IMG/VR virus record: IMGVR_UViG_3300037294_000399
Location: 32,308 to 96,307 of that record
Source: a virus
DNA: 64,000 nucleotides
Reading direction: 5' to 3' (one strand)
Position 1 is the first letter of the stretch. Every line of letters begins with the position of its first letter. Below, piece by piece: positions 3,891 to 39,879 of this stretch. The position numbers were made by a program, and so were the translations under genes. The notes under the pieces are model-generated. The model was not told the DNA's origin. It searched no databases and saw nothing but the letters and a program-made list of their open reading frames with translations.

Positions 3891-4220
3891 ATGAGTGATG
3901 AAAGAAAAAAAGCTGATAAAAAACCAGTTCCTAAATTGGAACCCAAAAAAAGGGTTGCGCCAATTCCCGTTCCAAAGGTAGAACCTAAGAAACGAGCAGA
4001 GGTTAAACTTATAGCCAAGGAAATTCCTAAACCAATTATTCTAGAACCAACTGAAAAAGTTAAAAGGTCTGAAAATAAATATGTTAGAATATCTTTAGAT
4101 GCTAAACAAGAAGAAAGAAAAGAGTTTAGTGAAAAAATGCAAAGGGGCGAATTAAAATTAGCTTATTATGCGATAGATGGTGATAAAAGTTATCACTATT
4201 ATTTAGTAATGAAAAAATAA
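3891..4220 (+). CDS. hypothetical Pro/Lys-rich protein
   Basis: ATG just after TACCTTTG. Confidence 0.7.
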   Translation: MSDERKKADKKPVPKLEPKKRVAPIPVPKVEPKKRAEVKLIAKEIPKPIILEPTEKVKRSENKYVRISLDAKQEERKEFSEKMQRGELKLAYYAIDGDKSYHYYLVMKK

Positions 4221-4226
4221 ACGGAT

Positions 4227-4622
4227 ATGACTTTAAAAGAGCAAATCAATGCGGGTTTCATGACTGCATTTAAAGCAAAAGATATGGAAAGAAAAAACTT
4301 CTTAGGTCTTGTTAAAGGTGAAATCCAAAATGAAGAAGGAAGAGGTACAGTAACTACTGATGGAAGTGTTTTGATTATTCTTAGAAAATTAGAAAAATCT
4401 ATTAAACAAACAAACTCACCGCAGTCGTTAGTTGAATTGGAATATTTAAAACCTTATTTACCAAATCTTATGAGTGAAGACCAAATCAAAACAATTATTC
4501 AAGGTTATAAAGAATCTGGTTTAACTAATACTGGTCAAATTATGGGCCAATTTAACAAAGAACACAAAGGGTTAGCTGATAATAAATTAGTTTCTGAAAT
4601 TATTAAAGAATTGTTGCCTTAA
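4227..4622 (+). CDS. GatB/YqeY domain protein
   Basis: MTLKEQI..AFKAKD, E..YLKPYLP..MSE, GQIMG motifs. Confidence 0.85.
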   Translation: MTLKEQINAGFMTAFKAKDMERKNFLGLVKGEIQNEEGRGTVTTDGSVLIILRKLEKSIKQTNSPQSLVELEYLKPYLPNLMSEDQIKTIIQGYKESGLTNTGQIMGQFNKEHKGLADNKLVSEIIKELLP

Positions 4623-4996
4623 TGTGGGTTTTTCTTTACATATTATTAGTACATTGGGTTGCTGATTTCTTATTACAAACTAGACACATGGCAACTAGAA
4701 AAAGTGAAAGTAATTATTACCTTAATTTTCATGTTACGATTTATTCGTTTACGACTATTGTGTTATGGGTTTTATTTTTATTAACTATAGGTGTTCACGT
4801 TACTAAAATTAGTATATTATTATCATTTGGTGTAACCTTTGCAACACATTGGTTGACTGATTATGTTACCAGTAGACAAACAAGTAAATTTTATAAAGCT
4901 GAAAATTATAAGGGTTTTTTTGATATGATTGGTTTTGACCAATTAATCCATGTTTTAATATTATTTTTAACATACAATTACATCATATTAAATTAA
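4622..4996 (+). CDS. DUF3307-like membrane protein
   Basis: HWVADFLLQ, H..TD, DQLIH motifs. Confidence 0.8.
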   Translation: MWVFLYILLVHWVADFLLQTRHMATRKSESNYYLNFHVTIYSFTTIVLWVLFLLTIGVHVTKISILLSFGVTFATHWLTDYVTSRQTSKFYKAENYKGFFDMIGFDQLIHVLILFLTYNYIILN

Positions 4997-21494: not shown

Positions 21495-21504
21495 TTGGAC
21501 ATGT

Positions 21505-21837
21505 ATGCAGACTAACTCGAATCAAGCGACAGTAATTACTGGTATCAACTACGCATATGCTTATGATGGTTACGGTAGTGCAATGGTACCTAAACCTAAA
21601 AAAGGTATTTCTGCTTTTGCTAAAAACATCATTGATAAAATACATGATGATAGTGAAGACAGTGAAGACAGTAATATGGTAAGCGAAGAGAGAGTAATGC
21701 CTTCTAAACCAATAAGAGTTAAATCAGTTGATAGAATTAGCCATTCTGATATTAGTGAAAGCTTTTTACGAAGTGATTCATTCATTGAATCATATAGTGG
21801 TTCAGAAGGAATTTCAGAAGGCCCTTCACAAGGATAA
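21505..21837 (+). CDS. hypothetical Ser/Glu-rich protein
   Basis: ORF directly after IS-end remnant. Confidence 0.55.
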   Translation: MQTNSNQATVITGINYAYAYDGYGSAMVPKPKKGISAFAKNIIDKIHDDSEDSEDSNMVSEERVMPSKPIRVKSVDRISHSDISESFLRSDSFIESYSGSEGISEGPSQG

Positions 21838-22098: not shown

Positions 22099-22305
22099 AT
22101 GTTAATAAGAAAAAAGGTAGATTTAGGGGAATATATCATCGACATAGAATACGATGACGTAACTGGTGCAATTGAAGTGACCGTATTAGACGAACTTGAA
22201 GGAGTAATTGAATCTATTACTATTAATAACACAGACGATTCTAGTGATGACGAAGATAATAATGATGATGTAGGTTTTAACGATTACACTATCAACTTGA
22301 ATTAA
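22099..22305 (+). CDS. hypothetical highly acidic protein
   Basis: D/E-rich 68 aa. Confidence 0.65.
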   Translation: MLIRKKVDLGEYIIDIEYDDVTGAIEVTVLDELEGVIESITINNTDDSSDDEDNNDDVGFNDYTINLN

Positions 22306-22313
22306 AATGTTTC

Positions 22314-22775
22314 ATGGAAAAATCAAAAGAAATACAAGCACCAAATGATTTGACATTCGCTAAAAACAATAAATGTATTTTTTTGGCTGGGTCAATCGAA
22401 ATGGGTAAAGCCGAGAATTGGCAAAAAAGAATAGTAGACGAGTTATCTGATAAAGGTTACACGTTTTTAAACCCAAGAAGAGATGACTGGGACAGCTCAT
22501 GGGAGCAAAAAATTGAGAATAAACAATTCAATGAACAAGTATCTTGGGAATTGAAAGCGTTAGAGATGGCAGACATCATTTTGATGTACTTTGACCCTAA
22601 CACGCAATCACCAATTTCATTGTTGGAATTGGGACTACACGCCAAAGATGGCAAACTAATCGTTTTATGTCCAGAAGGTTTCTGGAGAAAAGGCAACGTT
22701 GATATCGTATGTGAGAAATACGGGGTTAAACAGGTTGAATCGTTTGAAGAATTAATCAAAGCAATTAATGAGTAA
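22314..22775 (+). CDS. nucleoside 2-deoxyribosyltransferase-like protein
   Basis: IFLAGSI..WQ, NPRR, QV.WE..ALE.AD, SPISLLELG. Confidence 0.88.
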   Translation: MEKSKEIQAPNDLTFAKNNKCIFLAGSIEMGKAENWQKRIVDELSDKGYTFLNPRRDDWDSSWEQKIENKQFNEQVSWELKALEMADIILMYFDPNTQSPISLLELGLHAKDGKLIVLCPEGFWRKGNVDIVCEKYGVKQVESFEELIKAINE

Positions 22776-34068: not shown

Positions 34069-35385
34069 ATGAAATTTTTAGACAAACTTAAAAACATTTT
34101 CTTGTATTTTGGAAAATACAAAACACATTCAGAAGGTGTGATTATCGCTTGTTATTACAACCCAAGAAACAATCCTTACAGATTAATTGCATTCAACAAA
34201 TTTTACAAATCAATCAAACACCTTAACCACAGGATAGTGGAATGTGTTATTGGTGATTCAGAAGCACAATTGCCTCAAACAGAATTTATCACTAGAGTTT
34301 CAACAAACACCACTTTATGGCATAAAGAATCGCTATTGAATGGTCTTATATCTAAATTACCTACAAATTTTAAATATGTTTTTTGGGTAGATGCAGATGT
34401 AATATTCACCAATAAAAATTGGATGGTTGATGCAGTAGCTGAATTACAACCATCTAAAAACAGAATGGTTCAGTTATTTGAATATTGTATTCATTTGGGC
34501 CAAGATGAAACTAAACCTAGTTTTGCTGTTGAATATGAACGTCCAGTTGTTGATGAACCAAAAAGAAGACACCCTAAAATGTGGAGAAGCTTCGGTGCTA
34601 ATTTTGCAACTACTAATTATTCAGATGATGAAAATTATGACCGTCATGGTCATGTTGGTTTTGCTTGGGGTGTAAGACGTAGTGTTGTGGATGCTATGCC
34701 ATTGTATGACAAAGCACTTATTGGTGGGGCCGACCATATTATGGCACATGCGGCTGCTGGTCATGTTAACCATAAATGTATCTGTAAGTCATTTACTGAT
34801 GATATCTATGCGATAAGTGTATGGTCAGAACAGTTTAGAAGAGTTGTTGGGCAAAGAATTGGTTATGTTAAAGGTGATTTGTATCACATTTGGCATGGTG
34901 ATGTTGCTAAACGCCAATATTTAAAACGTATACAAGACTTTACATCAACAGCAAAAGAAATCACTGAGAAGGATGAGAATGGTTTGTATGTTACTGACAA
35001 AGATGAATATGTAAAACAATATATGGAACACCGTGAGAACACTGGTGGTACTGAAACGCATGTTCAAGAACCTGTGGTTAAAAAAGTAGTTCATGTGATG
35101 AAGAAAAACAAATTACCTAAAAATAAACCAACCAAAAAACAAATTGAATCTAAGCGTATTGAGTTGAGAAACCAATACCCTAATAATGATGATTCATTCA
35201 TTGAATCAATGTTGATTGGTTATATGACTGACTCTACTTTGATTGGTGGTATGATGGGTGGAAACCTTATGGGTGCTGCTATCGGTGATATGTTAAATAC
35301 TACCGACCAAGTTTTTGATAGTGGTTTCGGTGGCGGTGCTGGTAGTTCATGGGAAGACGACAAAAACGCAGAAAACTTTTCATAA
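34069..35385 (+). CDS. glycosyltransferase-like protein
   Basis: WHKE.LLN, FWVDADV (DxD), GGAD, HIWHG. Confidence 0.7.
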   Translation: MKFLDKLKNIFLYFGKYKTHSEGVIIACYYNPRNNPYRLIAFNKFYKSIKHLNHRIVECVIGDSEAQLPQTEFITRVSTNTTLWHKESLLNGLISKLPTNFKYVFWVDADVIFTNKNWMVDAVAELQPSKNRMVQLFEYCIHLGQDETKPSFAVEYERPVVDEPKRRHPKMWRSFGANFATTNYSDDENYDRHGHVGFAWGVRRSVVDAMPLYDKALIGGADHIMAHAAAGHVNHKCICKSFTDDIYAISVWSEQFRRVVGQRIGYVKGDLYHIWHGDVAKRQYLKRIQDFTSTAKEITEKDENGLYVTDKDEYVKQYMEHRENTGGTETHVQEPVVKKVVHVMKKNKLPKNKPTKKQIESKRIELRNQYPNNDDSFIESMLIGYMTDSTLIGGMMGGNLMGAAIGDMLNTTDQVFDSGFGGGAGSSWEDDKNAENFS

Positions 35386-35534
35386 TGACTATTACTGCAC
35401 TGTCTGACACACATAACCAACACAACAATATTCCCAGCAAATATTTAGCTGGGGGTGTATTTTTGAACGCTAGCGTTTTGAATGCTAGATATGTAATGAG
35501 TAATTTACCACATGAAATTGAAATAACAAAATAA
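35384..35534 (+). pseudogene. metallophosphoesterase with large internal deletion
   Basis: N-terminal LSDTHNQH joined directly to C-terminal FLNASVLN..Y. Confidence 0.6.
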
Positions 35535-35535
35535 T

Positions 35536-35892
35536 ATGATTGATAGAATTAAAAAACACATTATTGATAGAATTAAAAAACACATTATTGAACGAGATGC
35601 TATTATAGTTGAATTAAAAACTATTATGGGTCATTGTGATGATAGCCCAATTAACTTGGATTTCATCGACAAAAAATGGTTGGTAAATGATGATGAACTC
35701 CATCTTCAAGTTGATGATGAAGATTTAGAAGATAACTATTATGGTTATGAGATTTCATCTATGGGAGCCAAAGGTGAAGATTTCTTCATGGGTGATAAAG
35801 ATGGTTACACCTATGTGATGGGACATACTGGTGATTGGGAACAAACGCAAGTGTTTATATTGACAACAAAAAACAAAGTTGAATATGAGTAA
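35536..35892 (+). CDS. hypothetical protein with duplicated IDRIKKHI
   Basis: 24-nt tandem duplication at 5' end. Confidence 0.7.
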   Translation: MIDRIKKHIIDRIKKHIIERDAIIVELKTIMGHCDDSPINLDFIDKKWLVNDDELHLQVDDEDLEDNYYGYEISSMGAKGEDFFMGDKDGYTYVMGHTGDWEQTQVFILTTKNKVEYE

Positions 35893-36174
35893 TAAAAAAC
35901 AACAGATGAAAAAGAAATATTAACCTGTGAGTGTCACTCAACCGACCATCAAGTTATAATTCTTTATAGTGAAGATGAATTAGATAATGGTAGCAAATAT
36001 CCAATGTGTTATTTCCGTATTCATTTAAACAAAAAACCATTTTGGTAAAGAGTTAAATACGGAATCAAATATATTTTTGGGTATAAATGCAACTATGGTG
36101 CATTTGATGAATTTATCTTTAACCCAAAAGATGCGAACAAATTACAAGAATTAGTAGATTACTTAAATAAATAA
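35885..36174 (+). pseudogene. disrupted hypothetical gene
   Basis: EILTCECHSTDHQ...KPFW*RVKYGIKYIFGYK with frameshift and TAA. Confidence 0.55.
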
Positions 36175-36176
36175 AT

Positions 36177-36404
36177 ATGACTAGTAGAGACTTCGCATTC
36201 TGGCTTCAAGGTTTCTTTGAAGTAGCTAACCCAATTACTATCGGTAGCAAAGAAACCGATATGATTAAAAAACACTTGAACCTTGTGTTTAAGCATGAGA
36301 TTGACCCAAGCATGGGTGGTCCAGAACATCAAGCTGAATTAAATGAAATTCATAAACCACAATTTCCTATGAGGGACAGTGATGGTTCAGTTTTAAGGTG
36401 TTAA
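36177..36404 (+). CDS. conserved phage hypothetical protein
   Basis: DFAFWLQGFFE..IKKHL.LVF. Confidence 0.75.
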   Translation: MTSRDFAFWLQGFFEVANPITIGSKETDMIKKHLNLVFKHEIDPSMGGPEHQAELNEIHKPQFPMRDSDGSVLRC

Positions 36405-36471
36405 ATAAAAAACAAAAAAAATGATACAAAATACTTGCATTTTTAAAAAAGAGTTAGTACCTTTGTATCAT

Positions 36472-36955
36472 ATTAATCACATATAGAAAGACAAACAAGT
36501 AATAAGTTAGTTACAATACTACAAGAGGTGTTATGTTTGTTAAGTAAGATAAGTTGTAAACTTAACTGTAGAAAGAATGTAAGTCTCATAAGGTAATTTG
36601 AGCAAAGTTTTATAAGGGTGTTAAGCTAGGCGGTGTATGAGGGTTTGGGCTCATATAACTTATACATTCTTGGTGATATGTGATTTATTAAAATATTTGT
36701 TCAAAGTCAACAAGTAGTGTTAACCACACTGATACCAGTAAGGTCTGGTGCGTGATATTAGGCTTAGCAGCTGAGATGTAATCAAAACTTATGAACTTGG
36801 TATGTTCAGACACTATAGTCAAACACAAATGGCGTTTGTTGATTAGAGGTAGCACTTAGTCGGCTAGACCGAAAATAGTAGGGAGTACGAGTTCCTAAAG
36901 AGGTGAAATATCCTCGTGCATGTACGCTACTCATCGTGTTGTGACGATGGCAAAT
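36472..36955 (+). ncRNA. large structured ncRNA candidate (~480 nt)
   Basis: ORF-free, after promoter 36458; stems AGAATGTA/TACATTCT, TATGAG/CTCATA, TACCAG/CTGGTG, GTAGC/GCTAC, TCGG/CCGA, GAGG/CCTC, CATCGT/ACGATG. Confidence 0.6.
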
Positions 36956-36958
36956 ATT

Positions 36959-37123
36959 AGACAAGTGGTGGAAAAACTGAGCTGGCTTCGTAGGGAGCGG
37001 TGGTTCTAGGAGAATCTTAAATCAGTAGACACAATAACGGCTGGAGGTGTGGGCAAATCTCATTAAATACCCAATCCGAGCGTGGCTAGCTTGGCGGTGC
37101 TGGTTCAAATCCAGTCTTGTCTA
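36959..37123 (+). ncRNA. expanded tRNA-like RNA (165 nt)
   Basis: AGACAAG/CTTGTCT acceptor, Leu-type D stem GTGGTGGAA...TAGACAC with large insert, T arm GCTGGTTCAAATCCAGT, no canonical anticodon arm. Confidence 0.7.
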
Positions 37124-37134
37124 CAAAAACCGTT

Positions 37135-37289
37135 CGGGAGGAAGAATGATTGGATTTTCTTTTGTTTAACGTGTTAGCTTAAAATTGGAGAGGTGTACAA
37201 CTCAAAGAGGAGGTTACTAACATTTAGAAAGAAAGTTATTCGCTGAGGGCATGACCTAGAGATTGCGGGTTCGAGTCCCGTTCTCCCCA
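37135..37289 (+). ncRNA. tRNA-Met(CAT)-like RNA with ~85-nt D-loop insertion
   Basis: CGGGAGG/TCTCCCC, GAAT/ATTC D stem enclosing a long hairpin, loop with CAT, GCGGGTTCGAGTCCCGT. Confidence 0.65.
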
Positions 37290-37391
37290 CAAAACCTATA
37301 ATGACACAATAGAATAGGTTGTGTACTGATAGAGATGCAGTTACGATTTTTTAATTGTAAATATCTTGACAACTAGGAAAGACTAGTGAAT

Positions 37392-37484
37392 TGGTTAGCT
37401 TGGATAGAAGGTCGGTTCGACTCCGAAGGAAGGTGTTGGCACGGGTAGCTCCCTGTAGAGAGGTTCGAGTCCTCTCCTAATCAC
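37392..37484 (+). ncRNA. tRNA-like RNA with two T-arms
   Basis: TGGTTAG/CTAATCA acceptor; TCGG-TTCGACT-CCGA and GAGAGG-TTCGAGT-CCTCTC. Confidence 0.65.
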
Positions 37485-37489
37485 AAATC

Positions 37490-37801
37490 AACAGCATCTT
37501 GGGGAGATTTGTATCTTATTTCCTCTTGACGAAAACCAATAACACGGGGTACGCTTTCAGTGTGAGGCAACTAGTCGGTAGAAACATGATGGTCTGGATT
37601 TGAACGAAACATCTCTTGTGGGGGTTTGGTTGGTGAGAAAGCTTAACGGCTTTGAAGGTACTTAACTGGCTAAGAACATCAAACAAGAGGAGCCAGAGAG
37701 TTTTACGTTGACGAGGTTTACAAAGGCAAAGCTTGTTTTCGGTGATGTGTGACAGAACCGATGGTAGAAGGGAAAACCTCTGACGACTAGGAAAGACTAG
37801 T
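37490..37801 (+). ncRNA. structured ncRNA candidate ending in TGACGACTAGGAAAGACTAGT
   Basis: ORF-free and GC-richer; same terminal motif at 37367-37387. Confidence 0.5.
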
Positions 37802-37806
37802 AATTT

Positions 37807-37904
37807 GCGAGAGTGGCGAAGTGGTAAACGCTAAGGTCTTTAGCCCGAAGTACAAGGGAACAACTAGGGACTGGGTGTCGGTGGTTCGAGTCCACCCTCT
37901 CGCA
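37807..37904 (+). ncRNA. tRNA-like RNA with elongated anticodon arm
   Basis: GCGAGAG/CTCTCGC, D arm GCGAAGTGGTAAACGC, GTCTTTAG/CTAGGGAC stem with 20-nt loop, GGTGGTTCGAGTCCACC. Confidence 0.75.
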
Positions 37905-38001
37905 CAAAATTGGGGAATAGCAACATGAAGGTCGGCAAACTTTCAGACGGTTATAATCCTTTCTATCACGTTTAGCTTTGCCGAGCGACATAGTGATAGT
38001 T

Positions 38002-38073
38002 GATTCATTAGTAGAGTGGGCACTATGGCGGGATTTTAGCCCGCAGACGCTGGTTCGAATCCAGTATGAGTTT
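38002..38073 (+). tRNA. atypical tRNA-Lys(TTT)-like
   Basis: GATTCAT/ATGAGTT, GCGGG-ATTTTAG-CCCGC, GCTGGTTCGAATCCAGT. Confidence 0.7.
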
Positions 38074-38183
38074 CTAGGTTATATTATTAAAGCGACATTG
38101 ATGTGAGTAATCATGTGAGGCACACATAAAACAGTACCAATGAAAACATTGTGGTGATAGACCACCATGTAGTATAACCACAT

Positions 38184-38282
38184 ATATCGTTAGTTCAATG
38201 GTAGAATACCGAAATGGGAACACATCGGAAGATGCAGTACCAATCGCTTGCGGTGACATAGGTTCGATTCCTATACGATGTA
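38184..38282 (+). ncRNA. tRNA-like RNA with 12-nt anticodon loop and long variable arm
   Basis: ATATCGT/ACGATGT, TAGTTCAATGGTAGAAT, CCGA/TCGG, ATAGGTTCGATTCCTAT. Confidence 0.7.
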
Positions 38283-38301
38283 CAACTAATTAATAAAAAT
38301 T

Positions 38302-38487
38302 ATGATTACTGAAATTGAGTATAAAAAAGCTTTGAAAATTGTTGCTGATTATCGAAAACAAATAAAAGACGCTAAACCTAAAGAATGTAAACACTACAAT
38401 ACAGATTGGAACGTTGAAGAGCAAAGATTTATTTGCCCAGATTGTGGAAATAAATGTTCTCACCCCTTATTAATCGGACTTTTTTAA
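38302..38487 (+). CDS. small Zn-ribbon protein
   Basis: CKH...CPDCG. Confidence 0.65.
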   Translation: MITEIEYKKALKIVADYRKQIKDAKPKECKHYNTDWNVEEQRFICPDCGNKCSHPLLIGLF

Positions 38488-38574
38488 TTTCACTAGTACT
38501 AAGGTACAAAATTCTTCTTTATCTTTGCTCTGCGAGGAACAAACGAAGGTGAATATTATACCGAAGTTTGTAAA

Positions 38575-38832
38575 ATGTGCCAGCGCTGGTCATTTTTACT
38601 TAAAATAAGATTTTGTAATAAAACTTTAATGCCTTATAAATTTGAAATATTACTAGAGACAACGCATTCACCTAATATAATTTTTAATACTGAAATTGAA
38701 AATAAACAAATTTTTAAACCATCAAAATATAAACCTTTAAATAAATTTAGTGGGTGGAATGAATGTTTTAACGTAAATATCGCAGAAAATTTGATAGAAC
38801 TAATAACGAAAAAAATAAAACATGGCAAATAA
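38575..38832 (+). pseudogene. C-terminal remnant of an endonuclease like 38929-39879
   Basis: MPYKFEIL..IFNTE..KYKP..KFSG.NECF vs MPYKYDII..VFNIE..KYTP..KFHGMGECY. Confidence 0.7.
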
Positions 38833-38932
38833 AAAAATTTGTACCAATAAGAAAGCATACTTTGAGTATTTCATTCTAGAGAAACACACTGCTGGTATCC
38901 AACTACAAGGTTCAGAAGTTAAAGAAAATTAA
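38822..38932 (+). pseudogene. orphan 5' end of smpB (MANKKICTNKKAYFEYFILEKHTAGIQLQGSEVKEN*)
   Basis: aligns to TNRKARFEYEIIETFVSGIVLVGSEVK of 40310. Confidence 0.9.
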
Positions 38933-39879
38933 TTTAATTGTTTATTACAATAGTTTAAAATTTCTGGTTTATCTTTTATATAATAACACTCACCCATACC
39001 ATGGAATTTTATAGTCGGGGTGTATTTAATTTTTTTAAAATACCTGTGTAACGCTTTTTCTATGTTAAACACTAATTCTGGTTCAGCTTCATGTGTTAAT
39101 ATTATATCATATTTATAAGGCATATGTTTATTACTAGGGTATCTTCCTTTTAAGTTGTTTATTGTTATACCTATTTTAATGAATTCTTCAGTATCATTAT
39201 AACATTTAATAATATATAACATTGGTTTAGCCTTTATGTTTTTAGATATAATATTTTTCCAACTTGATAGTGAAAAACTATGTGAATTATTAATTGCTTT
39301 TTTAGACACCGTTATATAACCACATTTACGGCAACCACAACCTTTTAAATGCATATTAGGTGTTTGTTCAAAGTCACCATGTATTGGACAAATAATTGTG
39401 ATATTAACTTTACTATTTAAATAAATAATTTTAGAATAATTATATTTATCGCTATGAACTTTTTCGGCTTTTAATATGAACTCATTATTTGATGTGGTTC
39501 TATCCTCATTAAAACACTTCCAACAACCAACACCACTAATATGAGAACTTGGTGTTTGTTCAAATTTATCATGTATTGGGCAAATTATTTTAATTTTTTC
39601 ATAACAATTTTTATAATCTACCAATGAATAATTAAATTTATTTTTATGAACTATATTACATTTATTAATAAATTCTTCATTAGTTAAACCTTTTCCAGAA
39701 CATTTAATACAACCATTACCTTTTAAATGGTTATGTACTAATTGTTCAAAAACACCATGTTCAGAACAAATTATTTTAACGTTAGTTCTTTTATTAATAT
39801 AGTTAACTTTTGAATAATCATATTTATCACCATGTATTAATTTAGCTTTTGAAATAAAATTTTCAGTTTTATTTTCCAT
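38929..39879 (-). CDS. DUF723-type repeat endonuclease with C-terminal GIY-YIG/T5orf172-like domain
   Basis: three KY.YS..IIC..H..FEQ...H..G.GC repeats; LYII..FIKIGIT..R..E..LH. Confidence 0.85.
   Translation of the reverse strand: MENKTENFISKAKLIHGDKYDYSKVNYINKRTNVKIICSEHGVFEQLVHNHLKGNGCIKCSGKGLTNEEFINKCNIVHKNKFNYSLVDYKNCYEKIKIICPIHDKFEQTPSSHISGVGCWKCFNEDRTTSNNEFILKAEKVHSDKYNYSKIIYLNSKVNITIICPIHGDFEQTPNMHLKGCGCRKCGYITVSKKAINNSHSFSLSSWKNIISKNIKAKPMLYIIKCYNDTEEFIKIGITINNLKGRYPSNKHMPYKYDIILTHEAEPELVFNIEKALHRYFKKIKYTPTIKFHGMGECYYIKDKPEILNYCNKQLN

Follow-up and report, generated by a model that had tools for sequence, protein, structure and literature searches.

An array of oversized tRNA-shaped elements beside smpB, a candidate non-coding RNA operon of a Bacteroidota jumbo phage

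The stretch of DNA analysed here, referred to as the window, comprises 64,000 nucleotides (nt), bases 32308-96307 of a 96-kb IMG/VR viral contig (IMGVR_UViG_3300037294_000399; CheckV completeness 27%, corresponding to a genome of roughly 350 kb; G+C about 30%). Upstream of the gene smpB it contains a 1.8-kb stretch without open reading frames (ORFs) at 36434-38290, in which the G+C content is about 44% and six elements shaped like transfer RNAs (tRNAs), here called A to F, follow one another on the plus strand. An original prediction, made from the letters of the DNA, had placed tRNA mimics at these coordinates, and all six were present there. The element block stays ORF-free under code 11, with TAG read as Q and under code 4 (TGA=W), and with TAG=Q or TGA=W no hidden ORF longer than about 110 amino acids was found in it. 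Common to all six units are a paired acceptor stem, GG at the D-loop position and a canonical T arm. It is the decoding half that is altered, being replaced in A, C and D, expanded in B, interrupted in F and fast-changing in E. A 7-base-pair (bp) acceptor stem together with a 5-bp T stem and its T loop was found in six of six units, with position 1:72 of B and a mismatch in C as exceptions, and a 5-bp anticodon stem with a 7-nt loop, U33 and a purine at position 37 was found only in the window copy of E.

Relatives were located through SmpB, DNA patterns and one flanking protein, and the array was recovered in three other records (L012, L003 and L016). Identity to the window array is 93-96% for L012 and 75-97% for L003 and L016, which together make up a second clade. 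Different oversized tRNA-shaped genes are arrayed in the same neighbourhood of a distant phage, L007, so that the comparisons below rest on four homologous arrays from two clades and one distant array. The array adjoins smpB in all five genomes. Unit content and order vary between the clades, and in L003, C precedes A. A blastn search of GenBank phages with the whole block gave no match, and further searches via flanking proteins and a profile returned the same genomes again and added none. Among the homologs, 95-100% of the proposed pairs are conserved, compared with 27-62% when the partners were slid, a control that does not amount to a probability.

Element A (165 nt) consists of a 7-bp acceptor stem, an 11-nt GG-containing linker (UGGUGGAAAAA) and an 8-bp helix around about 100 nt, followed by a 4-nt link, the T arm and the acceptor strand. 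The enclosed region holds two hairpins and a possible H-type pseudoknot, the support for which is one changed pair per stem, as well as a short frame (GCG GUG GUU CUA GGA GAA UCU UAA) with one synonymous change in L003. All 31 pairs of A are formed in every sequence (36-52% with partners slid) and six are compensatory, four of these in the T stem; the acceptor pair C4-G69 reads U-A in L003 and L016. For B, a Met-like body with a hairpin of about 85 nt in the D loop had been predicted. A CAU anticodon arm and the hairpin were both seen, and the insert measures 81 nt. The 38 pairs of B are 95% paired with four compensatory changes, and position 1:72 is unpaired in four of four sequences (CxC or AxC). 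Its anticodon loop is GGCAUGA, GGCAUAA or, in L003 and L016, the 8-nt GGUCAUAA. Insert and frame change at similar rates in both A and B. The two T arms expected in C were observed as two T-arm hairpins, of which the inner one matches the T arm of the phage tRNA-Ala across 13-16 nt. Scored by hand, the acceptor and both T-like stems of C show compensatory change between the clades with a one-base register shift; in the window clade the acceptor has six pairs and one mismatch.

In D, the anticodon arm is replaced by the predicted stem with a 20-nt loop, the stem having 9 bp with three G.U pairs. D is 100% identical in L012 and 96-97% identical in L003 and L016, compared with about 70-81% for the flanking coding DNA. 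Change in E is concentrated in the anticodon loop, where four of seven columns vary, versus eight of 66 elsewhere (p=0.012). The anticodons in the four close genomes are UUU, UUG, UGG and UUG, in the loops AUUUUAG, CGUUGAG, CGUGGAG and CGUUGAG, and one pair of E is compensatory. A tRNA-Gln-like gene in a standard cluster of the same contig (G000:C1:19719-19793) has the loop CGUUGAG with G33, as does E of L012 and L016. Element F has the anticodon GGG (GAG in L012) and carries 45 nt on its anticodon side where 17 belong. Conserved across the homologs is a stem of six positions, one an AxG mismatch, that encloses 33 nt with CAUC-GNRA-GAUG among them; the stem CCGA/UCGG with a 12-nt loop that had been proposed instead is not conserved and is broken in L003. 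The 26 pairs of F are 95% paired, and the six compensatory changes all lie in the frame (acceptor, D and T stems). Fixed differences between the clades number 0 of 45 positions in this module versus 15 of 54 in the frame (p=4e-5). The motifs GGGAACA and AGUAC are common to D and F, a sharing judged compatible with chance. No other copies of the inserts, as would mark repeated mobile elements, were found in the contig, where they are unique sequences, and the D and F cargo was found in none of 185,579 bacterial and archaeal genomes.

Standard tools recovered the array in part. The gathering threshold of the Rfam tRNA family (RF00005) is 29 bits, and D (with a 42-nt insert), E and F (39 nt in place of 11) scored above it (Table 1). 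No Rfam tRNA match was obtained for A, B or C even at E<=1, and all three were missed by ARAGORN at its default setting, which recovered only two units: D, as a tRNA that it could not classify and to which it gave a four-base anticodon, and E, as Lys(UUU). When the ARAGORN threshold was lowered, A and C were forced into tRNA models and the T arm of B into a permuted transfer-messenger RNA (tmRNA) call. A was found by an acceptor/T-arm scan, and B and C were confirmed by reading alignments.

Table 1. Features of the element block and its surroundings in the window
Feature	Start	End	Strand	Description	Basis
Promoter-like site	36434	36467	+	Bacteroidota type (TTG, 19 nt, TAccTTTG)	Read from sequence
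Leader RNA domain	36694	36956	+	About 265 nt, directly before A	RNAalifold
A	36959	37123	+	tRNA frame without D stem, long helix in place of anticodon arm	
B	37135	37289	+	tRNA(CAU)-like; hairpin insert 37155-37235 after D-loop GG	
Hairpin	37372	37387	+	ACTAG-GAAAGA-CTAGT, ends 5 nt before C	
C	37392	37485	+	Extra T-arm-like hairpin 37411-37427 at the place of the D/anticodon arm	T-arm scan
Spacer	37486	37785	+	Non-coding, kept only in close relative L012	
Second GAAAGA-loop hairpin	37786	37801	+	Ends 5 nt before D	
D	37807	37904	+	Leucine-type tRNA top half (3-bp D stem)	Rfam tRNA, 41.8 bits
D-E spacer	37905	38001	+	97 nt, nearly invariant, structured	
E	38002	38074	+	Near-canonical Lys(UUU) tRNA, G1.U72, U73	Rfam tRNA, 50.9 bits
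E-F spacer	38075	38183	+	Hairpins kept by compensatory change	
F	38184	38282	+	tRNA frame, 28-nt insert at position 37/38	Rfam tRNA, 45.6 bits
smpB 5' fragment	38822	38932	+	Orphan	ORF list
T5orf172-type endonuclease gene	38929	39879	-	Between smpB fragment and smpB	Pfam PF10544
smpB	40301	40753	+	Intact	Pfam PF01668, E 7e-53

The block is headed by a putative promoter, which we take to resemble the Bacteroides -33/-7 consensus; its TTG-N19-TAccTTTG motif is also present at the head of the L003 and L016 arrays. Between this site and the leader domain lies a four-codon mini-ORF (MFVK; 36534-36548) with a Shine-Dalgarno-like AGAGG. RNAalifold on four sequences predicted 78 pairs in the leader domain, nine of them compensatory, and no Rfam family was matched by it. 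Several of the tRNA-framed units are preceded, at a distance of 3-5 nt, by hairpins with a constant GAAAGA loop and stems that differ yet remain complementary, each preceded by TGAC. Units in L003 (hairpins at 4465-4484 and 4757-4776) and in L007 (2451-2472 and 2663-2683) have such hairpins before them as well, and they could be a processing or protein-binding signal. As a bare word, GGAAAGAC had two matches in the window, which is not above chance. The D-E spacer is about 98% identical over both clades and folds with a z-score of -2.5. In the E-F spacer (z-score of -2.6 against dinucleotide shuffles), a hairpin reads CAATG-AAAA-CATTG in the window versus TTAGC-GAAAG-GCTAA in L003, so that all five of its pairs are compensatory. 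The spacer between C and D has its equivalent position in L003 and L016 occupied by other tRNA-framed units. In L003 these comprise a tRNA-framed RNA of 203 nt with a weak tmRNA-model match (4160-4362; 10.7 bits) and, at 4596-4669, a tRNA-like gene whose 'anticodon' loop has 4 nt; the window holds an unrelated 300-nt spacer at this site. A 107-amino-acid ORF between A and B (L016:9712-10035) was seen only in L016.

Downstream of the block, the order is two small ORFs, the smpB fragment, the T5orf172-type endonuclease gene, smpB and a sigma-70 family gene. Upstream of it, a short ORF at 35349-35534 is the remnant of a metallophosphoesterase gene that is whole at L016:3854-4510. Amid the standard tRNA clusters that this contig carries upstream of the window sit three more oversized tRNA-shaped genes (G000:C1:20480-20607, 21497-21621 and 22292-22410; 128, 125 and 119 nt). 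A D arm of the leucine type is present in one, and the insert of one holds a T-arm-like hairpin.

The units probably do not decode, because their anticodon half is altered as described above and in E is non-canonical as well as fast-changing. Whichever segment is taken out of A, C or D, no canonical anticodon arm is left, that is, no 5-bp stem with a 7-nt loop, and the ARAGORN intron models of these three elements have odd intron positions and leave mismatched stems. U33 is near-universal in tRNAs, and G33 is found in B and in three of the four copies of E. The units also appear to be supernumerary, since a sister phage, G005 (64% complete), encodes standard tRNAs for all 20 amino acids and a CTA suppressor alongside the array. 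A parent isoacceptor was sought for the units among the standard tRNAs of this phage and of G005, none of which resembles any of the frames. G005 further encodes an enzyme of the CCA-adding type, and the units have no encoded CCA. The tRNA with anticodon CTA in the sister phage (L030:10100-10173, minus strand) is of the amber-suppressor type, and part of that genome may use TAG as a sense codon.

With moderate confidence, we interpret the units as stable, non-decoding tRNA-framed RNAs, processed by RNase P and RNase Z, whose lower half is a cargo that would bind some protein. The same confidence attaches to the companion reading that 36434-38282 is an operon of non-coding RNAs in a jumbo phage of Bacteroidota. 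The block would be transcribed as one precursor and cut by host tRNA-processing enzymes into the units, and possibly into leader and spacer RNAs too. Host processing is proposed because every unit keeps the parts that these enzymes recognise, namely a 7-bp acceptor stacked on a 5-bp T stem, a UUCRANY T loop, the D-loop GG and a discriminator A (U73 in E). The acceptor/T minihelix, T loop, D-loop GG and discriminator are the features read by RNase P, RNase Z and the CCA-adding enzyme. After addition of CCA, the products would be stable L-shaped RNAs in which the tRNA frame, as a scaffold, supports processing and stability, the conserved lower half being the working part. Most likely, the lower half would bind a tRNA-handling protein, such as a tRNA-directed defence nuclease or toxin, and act as a decoy or trap. 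A decoy for tRNA-targeting nucleases, one of the roles originally suggested, fits the switching loop of E and the G33 loops of B and E. A more far-reaching version is offered tentatively, as we consider it rather unlikely: the block may be an anti-defence island of CCA-tailed tRNA-framed RNAs whose anticodon halves, with the G33 loops of B and E and the invariant modules of D and F, are uncleavable traps for tRNA-targeting nucleases or toxins of the host, the anticodon of E tracking the tRNA attacked in each host.

Several observations weigh against the interpretation of the units as tRNA-framed cargo RNAs. The insert of F lies exactly at the canonical intron position, 37/38, and its excision leaves a near-normal tRNA. 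Compensatory changes are few, with two clades compared, and their number is in part a product of shared ancestry. Recent recombination, rather than selection, could be the source of the high identity of D and of the D-E spacer. Against dinucleotide shuffles, the folding z-scores of the inserts are about 0 for A, B, C and F and -1.0 for D (the whole D unit folds better than shuffles, z-score of -2.3), and a search of the 96-kb contig for antisense targets of the inserts gave no more than shuffles did at 11-13-mers.

The position of the F insert bears on another explanation, which is possible though unlikely in our view: F above all, and possibly B, would be decoding tRNAs whose small introns are removed by an undescribed, protein-driven route, and would resemble the tRNAs with 'enigmatic introns' in the Lak megaphages. 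Excision of the 28 nt between 37 and 38 of F gives the loop AUGGGAU with U33 and A37, B retains its CAU anticodon arm, and conserved inserts in megaphage tRNAs are on record (Devoto et al., PMC6784885). The inserts are, however, too small for group I introns (23-100 nt versus a core of more than 200 nt) and matched no Rfam intron; F, read by hand, is without the 3-4-3 motif of a bulge-helix-bulge; and neither the splicing endonuclease nor RtcB (PF01974 and PF01139) was found in about 725 kb of five related, incomplete contigs. Moreover, the F module is more conserved than the supposed exons, the AxG mismatch in its anticodon stem is present in four of four sequences, one frame carries either GGG or GAG as anticodon, no intron-less F allele was found in IMG/VR, and excision does not restore an anticodon arm in A, C or D. 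The units may instead serve mainly as cutting marks for RNase P and RNase Z that free functional leader and spacer RNAs, in the manner of mitochondrial tRNA punctuation or MALAT1-mascRNA. This role had been listed in the original prediction, and it stays plausible in so far as the leader and two spacers proved to be conserved and structured, with the compensatory pairs of the leader, the spacer folding scores, the near-identity of the D-E spacer and the fully compensated E-F hairpin all in its favour. As the main function it seems quite improbable to us, since an acceptor/T minihelix would suffice for cutting and the invariant 45-nt module of F, the near-invariant D and the interior of A would be left unexplained; it is nevertheless compatible with the units being cargo RNAs and does not exclude this.

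The neighbourhood of smpB suggests a further role, in which A, and perhaps other units, would act in the manner of tmRNA with the phage SmpB, whose gene lies 0.5-2 kb downstream. The layout of A, with a GG linker and a long helix for the anticodon arm but no D stem, would suit such a partner, as would the hairpins, possible H-type pseudoknot and short frame of its interior, and array and smpB are neighbours in five genomes. Yet the universal alanine identity is absent from A, in which pair 3:70 is A-U (A3-U70), and a conserved G3.U70 is found in none of the six units: B has G-C or U-A, F has G3.U70 only in L003, and C has it only under the non-conserved U1-A72 register of the window copy, with G-C in L012 and A-U in L003 and L016. 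No Rfam tmRNA match was obtained at E<=1 in 35500-39500, and no array-type unit lies within 6 kb of smpB in six further smpB phage loci. The permuted tmRNA called by ARAGORN at 37200-37694 was rejected, as its tag is implausible, L003 is without the supposed coding piece, and the 3' acceptor strand in L003 covaries with the local 37136-37141 and not with 37501. G005 has a full-length tmRNA-model match of 360 nt elsewhere, about 100 kb from smpB (L022:1501-1860, minus strand, which is G005:C1:222294-222653). It was missed by ARAGORN and scored 44.4 bits, just below the Rfam tmRNA (RF00023) cut-off of 47 bits, and has the acceptor GGGGCAU/AUGCUCC with G3.U70. On the strength of this match, SmpB probably has its usual tmRNA partner, presumably also in the missing part of the window contig. 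These results weaken the earlier proposal of SmpB ligands, and we regard a tmRNA-like role as very unlikely. Still more improbable is that the units are functionless, as decaying tRNA pseudogenes or as scars of recombination or homing endonucleases. C does hold a T arm nearly identical to that of tRNA-Ala, unit content and order differ between the clades, and the inserts fold no better than chance, so the argument first made against decay, that the inserts are themselves paired, did not hold. It is conservation, not pairing energy, that argues against decay: compensatory changes hold the frame helices at 95-100% paired, F and D are far more conserved than the neighbouring genes, and the block keeps its promoter-like site and its position in five genomes. 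The claim that the tRNA mimics are maintained is therefore upheld on these grounds: the frames show compensatory change, and the modules of D and F are under strong sequence constraint.

Several known RNAs resemble the units in part. The tRNA-like domain of tmRNA (RF00023) shares with A the missing D stem, the long helix for the anticodon arm, the T arm and acceptor, and proximity to smpB; A differs in having no G3.U70, in its length of 165 nt versus about 360 nt, and in lacking a recognisable tag frame or model match. YrlA, a bacterial Y RNA-like RNA, has a tRNA-like module, and the RNA ends lie on the Ro-binding stem, on the anticodon side. Both YrlA and the units described here are non-coding RNAs mimicking the tRNA elbow, but the ends of the units pair as the acceptor stem, and no Rfam Y RNA was matched. 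RNAC and RNAD of phage T4 are small stable RNAs from a tRNA region whose roles are unexplained (PMC3014915); likened by description, they too are non-tRNA small RNAs co-encoded with phage tRNAs. Phage tRNAs with altered anticodon loops are reported to escape anticodon nucleases and to remain decoders (van den Berg et al. 2023, PMC10264068). They share with the loops of E and B a concentration of change in the anticodon loop on a conserved body, and differ in that here U33 is replaced by G33 and anticodon identity switches. A 2023 survey listed, and did not resolve, tRNA-like candidates in viruses (PMC10690425).

The closest counterparts are found in the Lak megaphages of Prevotella, whose tRNAs contain 'enigmatic', highly conserved introns (Devoto et al. 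2019, PMC6784885). Oversized tRNA-shaped genes of huge phages have thus been on record since 2019 as 'enigmatic introns' without a function. Likened by description, both sets are oversized tRNA-shaped genes of huge Bacteroidota phages, with inserts that are conserved across genomes and unclassified in Rfam, some of them with tRNA-like hairpins. The Lak genes occur singly and dispersed, and their inserts are taken for introns of named isoacceptors, whereas here six units form a putative ORF-free operon beside smpB. The types with a long helix and no D stem, with an expanded D loop or with a double T arm are not described for Lak, and here there is direct evidence of stronger constraint on an insert than on its frame. 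The locus offers a compact, comparable set of six architectures in one putative operon, and its homologs separate selection on the frame from selection on the cargo, which suggests that at least some such genes are not interrupted tRNAs. The units may be natural counterparts of the laboratory 'tRNA scaffold' for stable RNAs. Binding of the cargo to tRNA-directed defence enzymes of the host would make them a new class of RNA counter-defence, and splicing of the inserts would point to a tRNA-splicing route unknown in bacteria. The kind of gene itself is known from the Lak phages, and new here are the placement of the units as a putative operon next to smpB, the variety of their architectures and the way in which constraint on the frame is told apart from that on the cargo.

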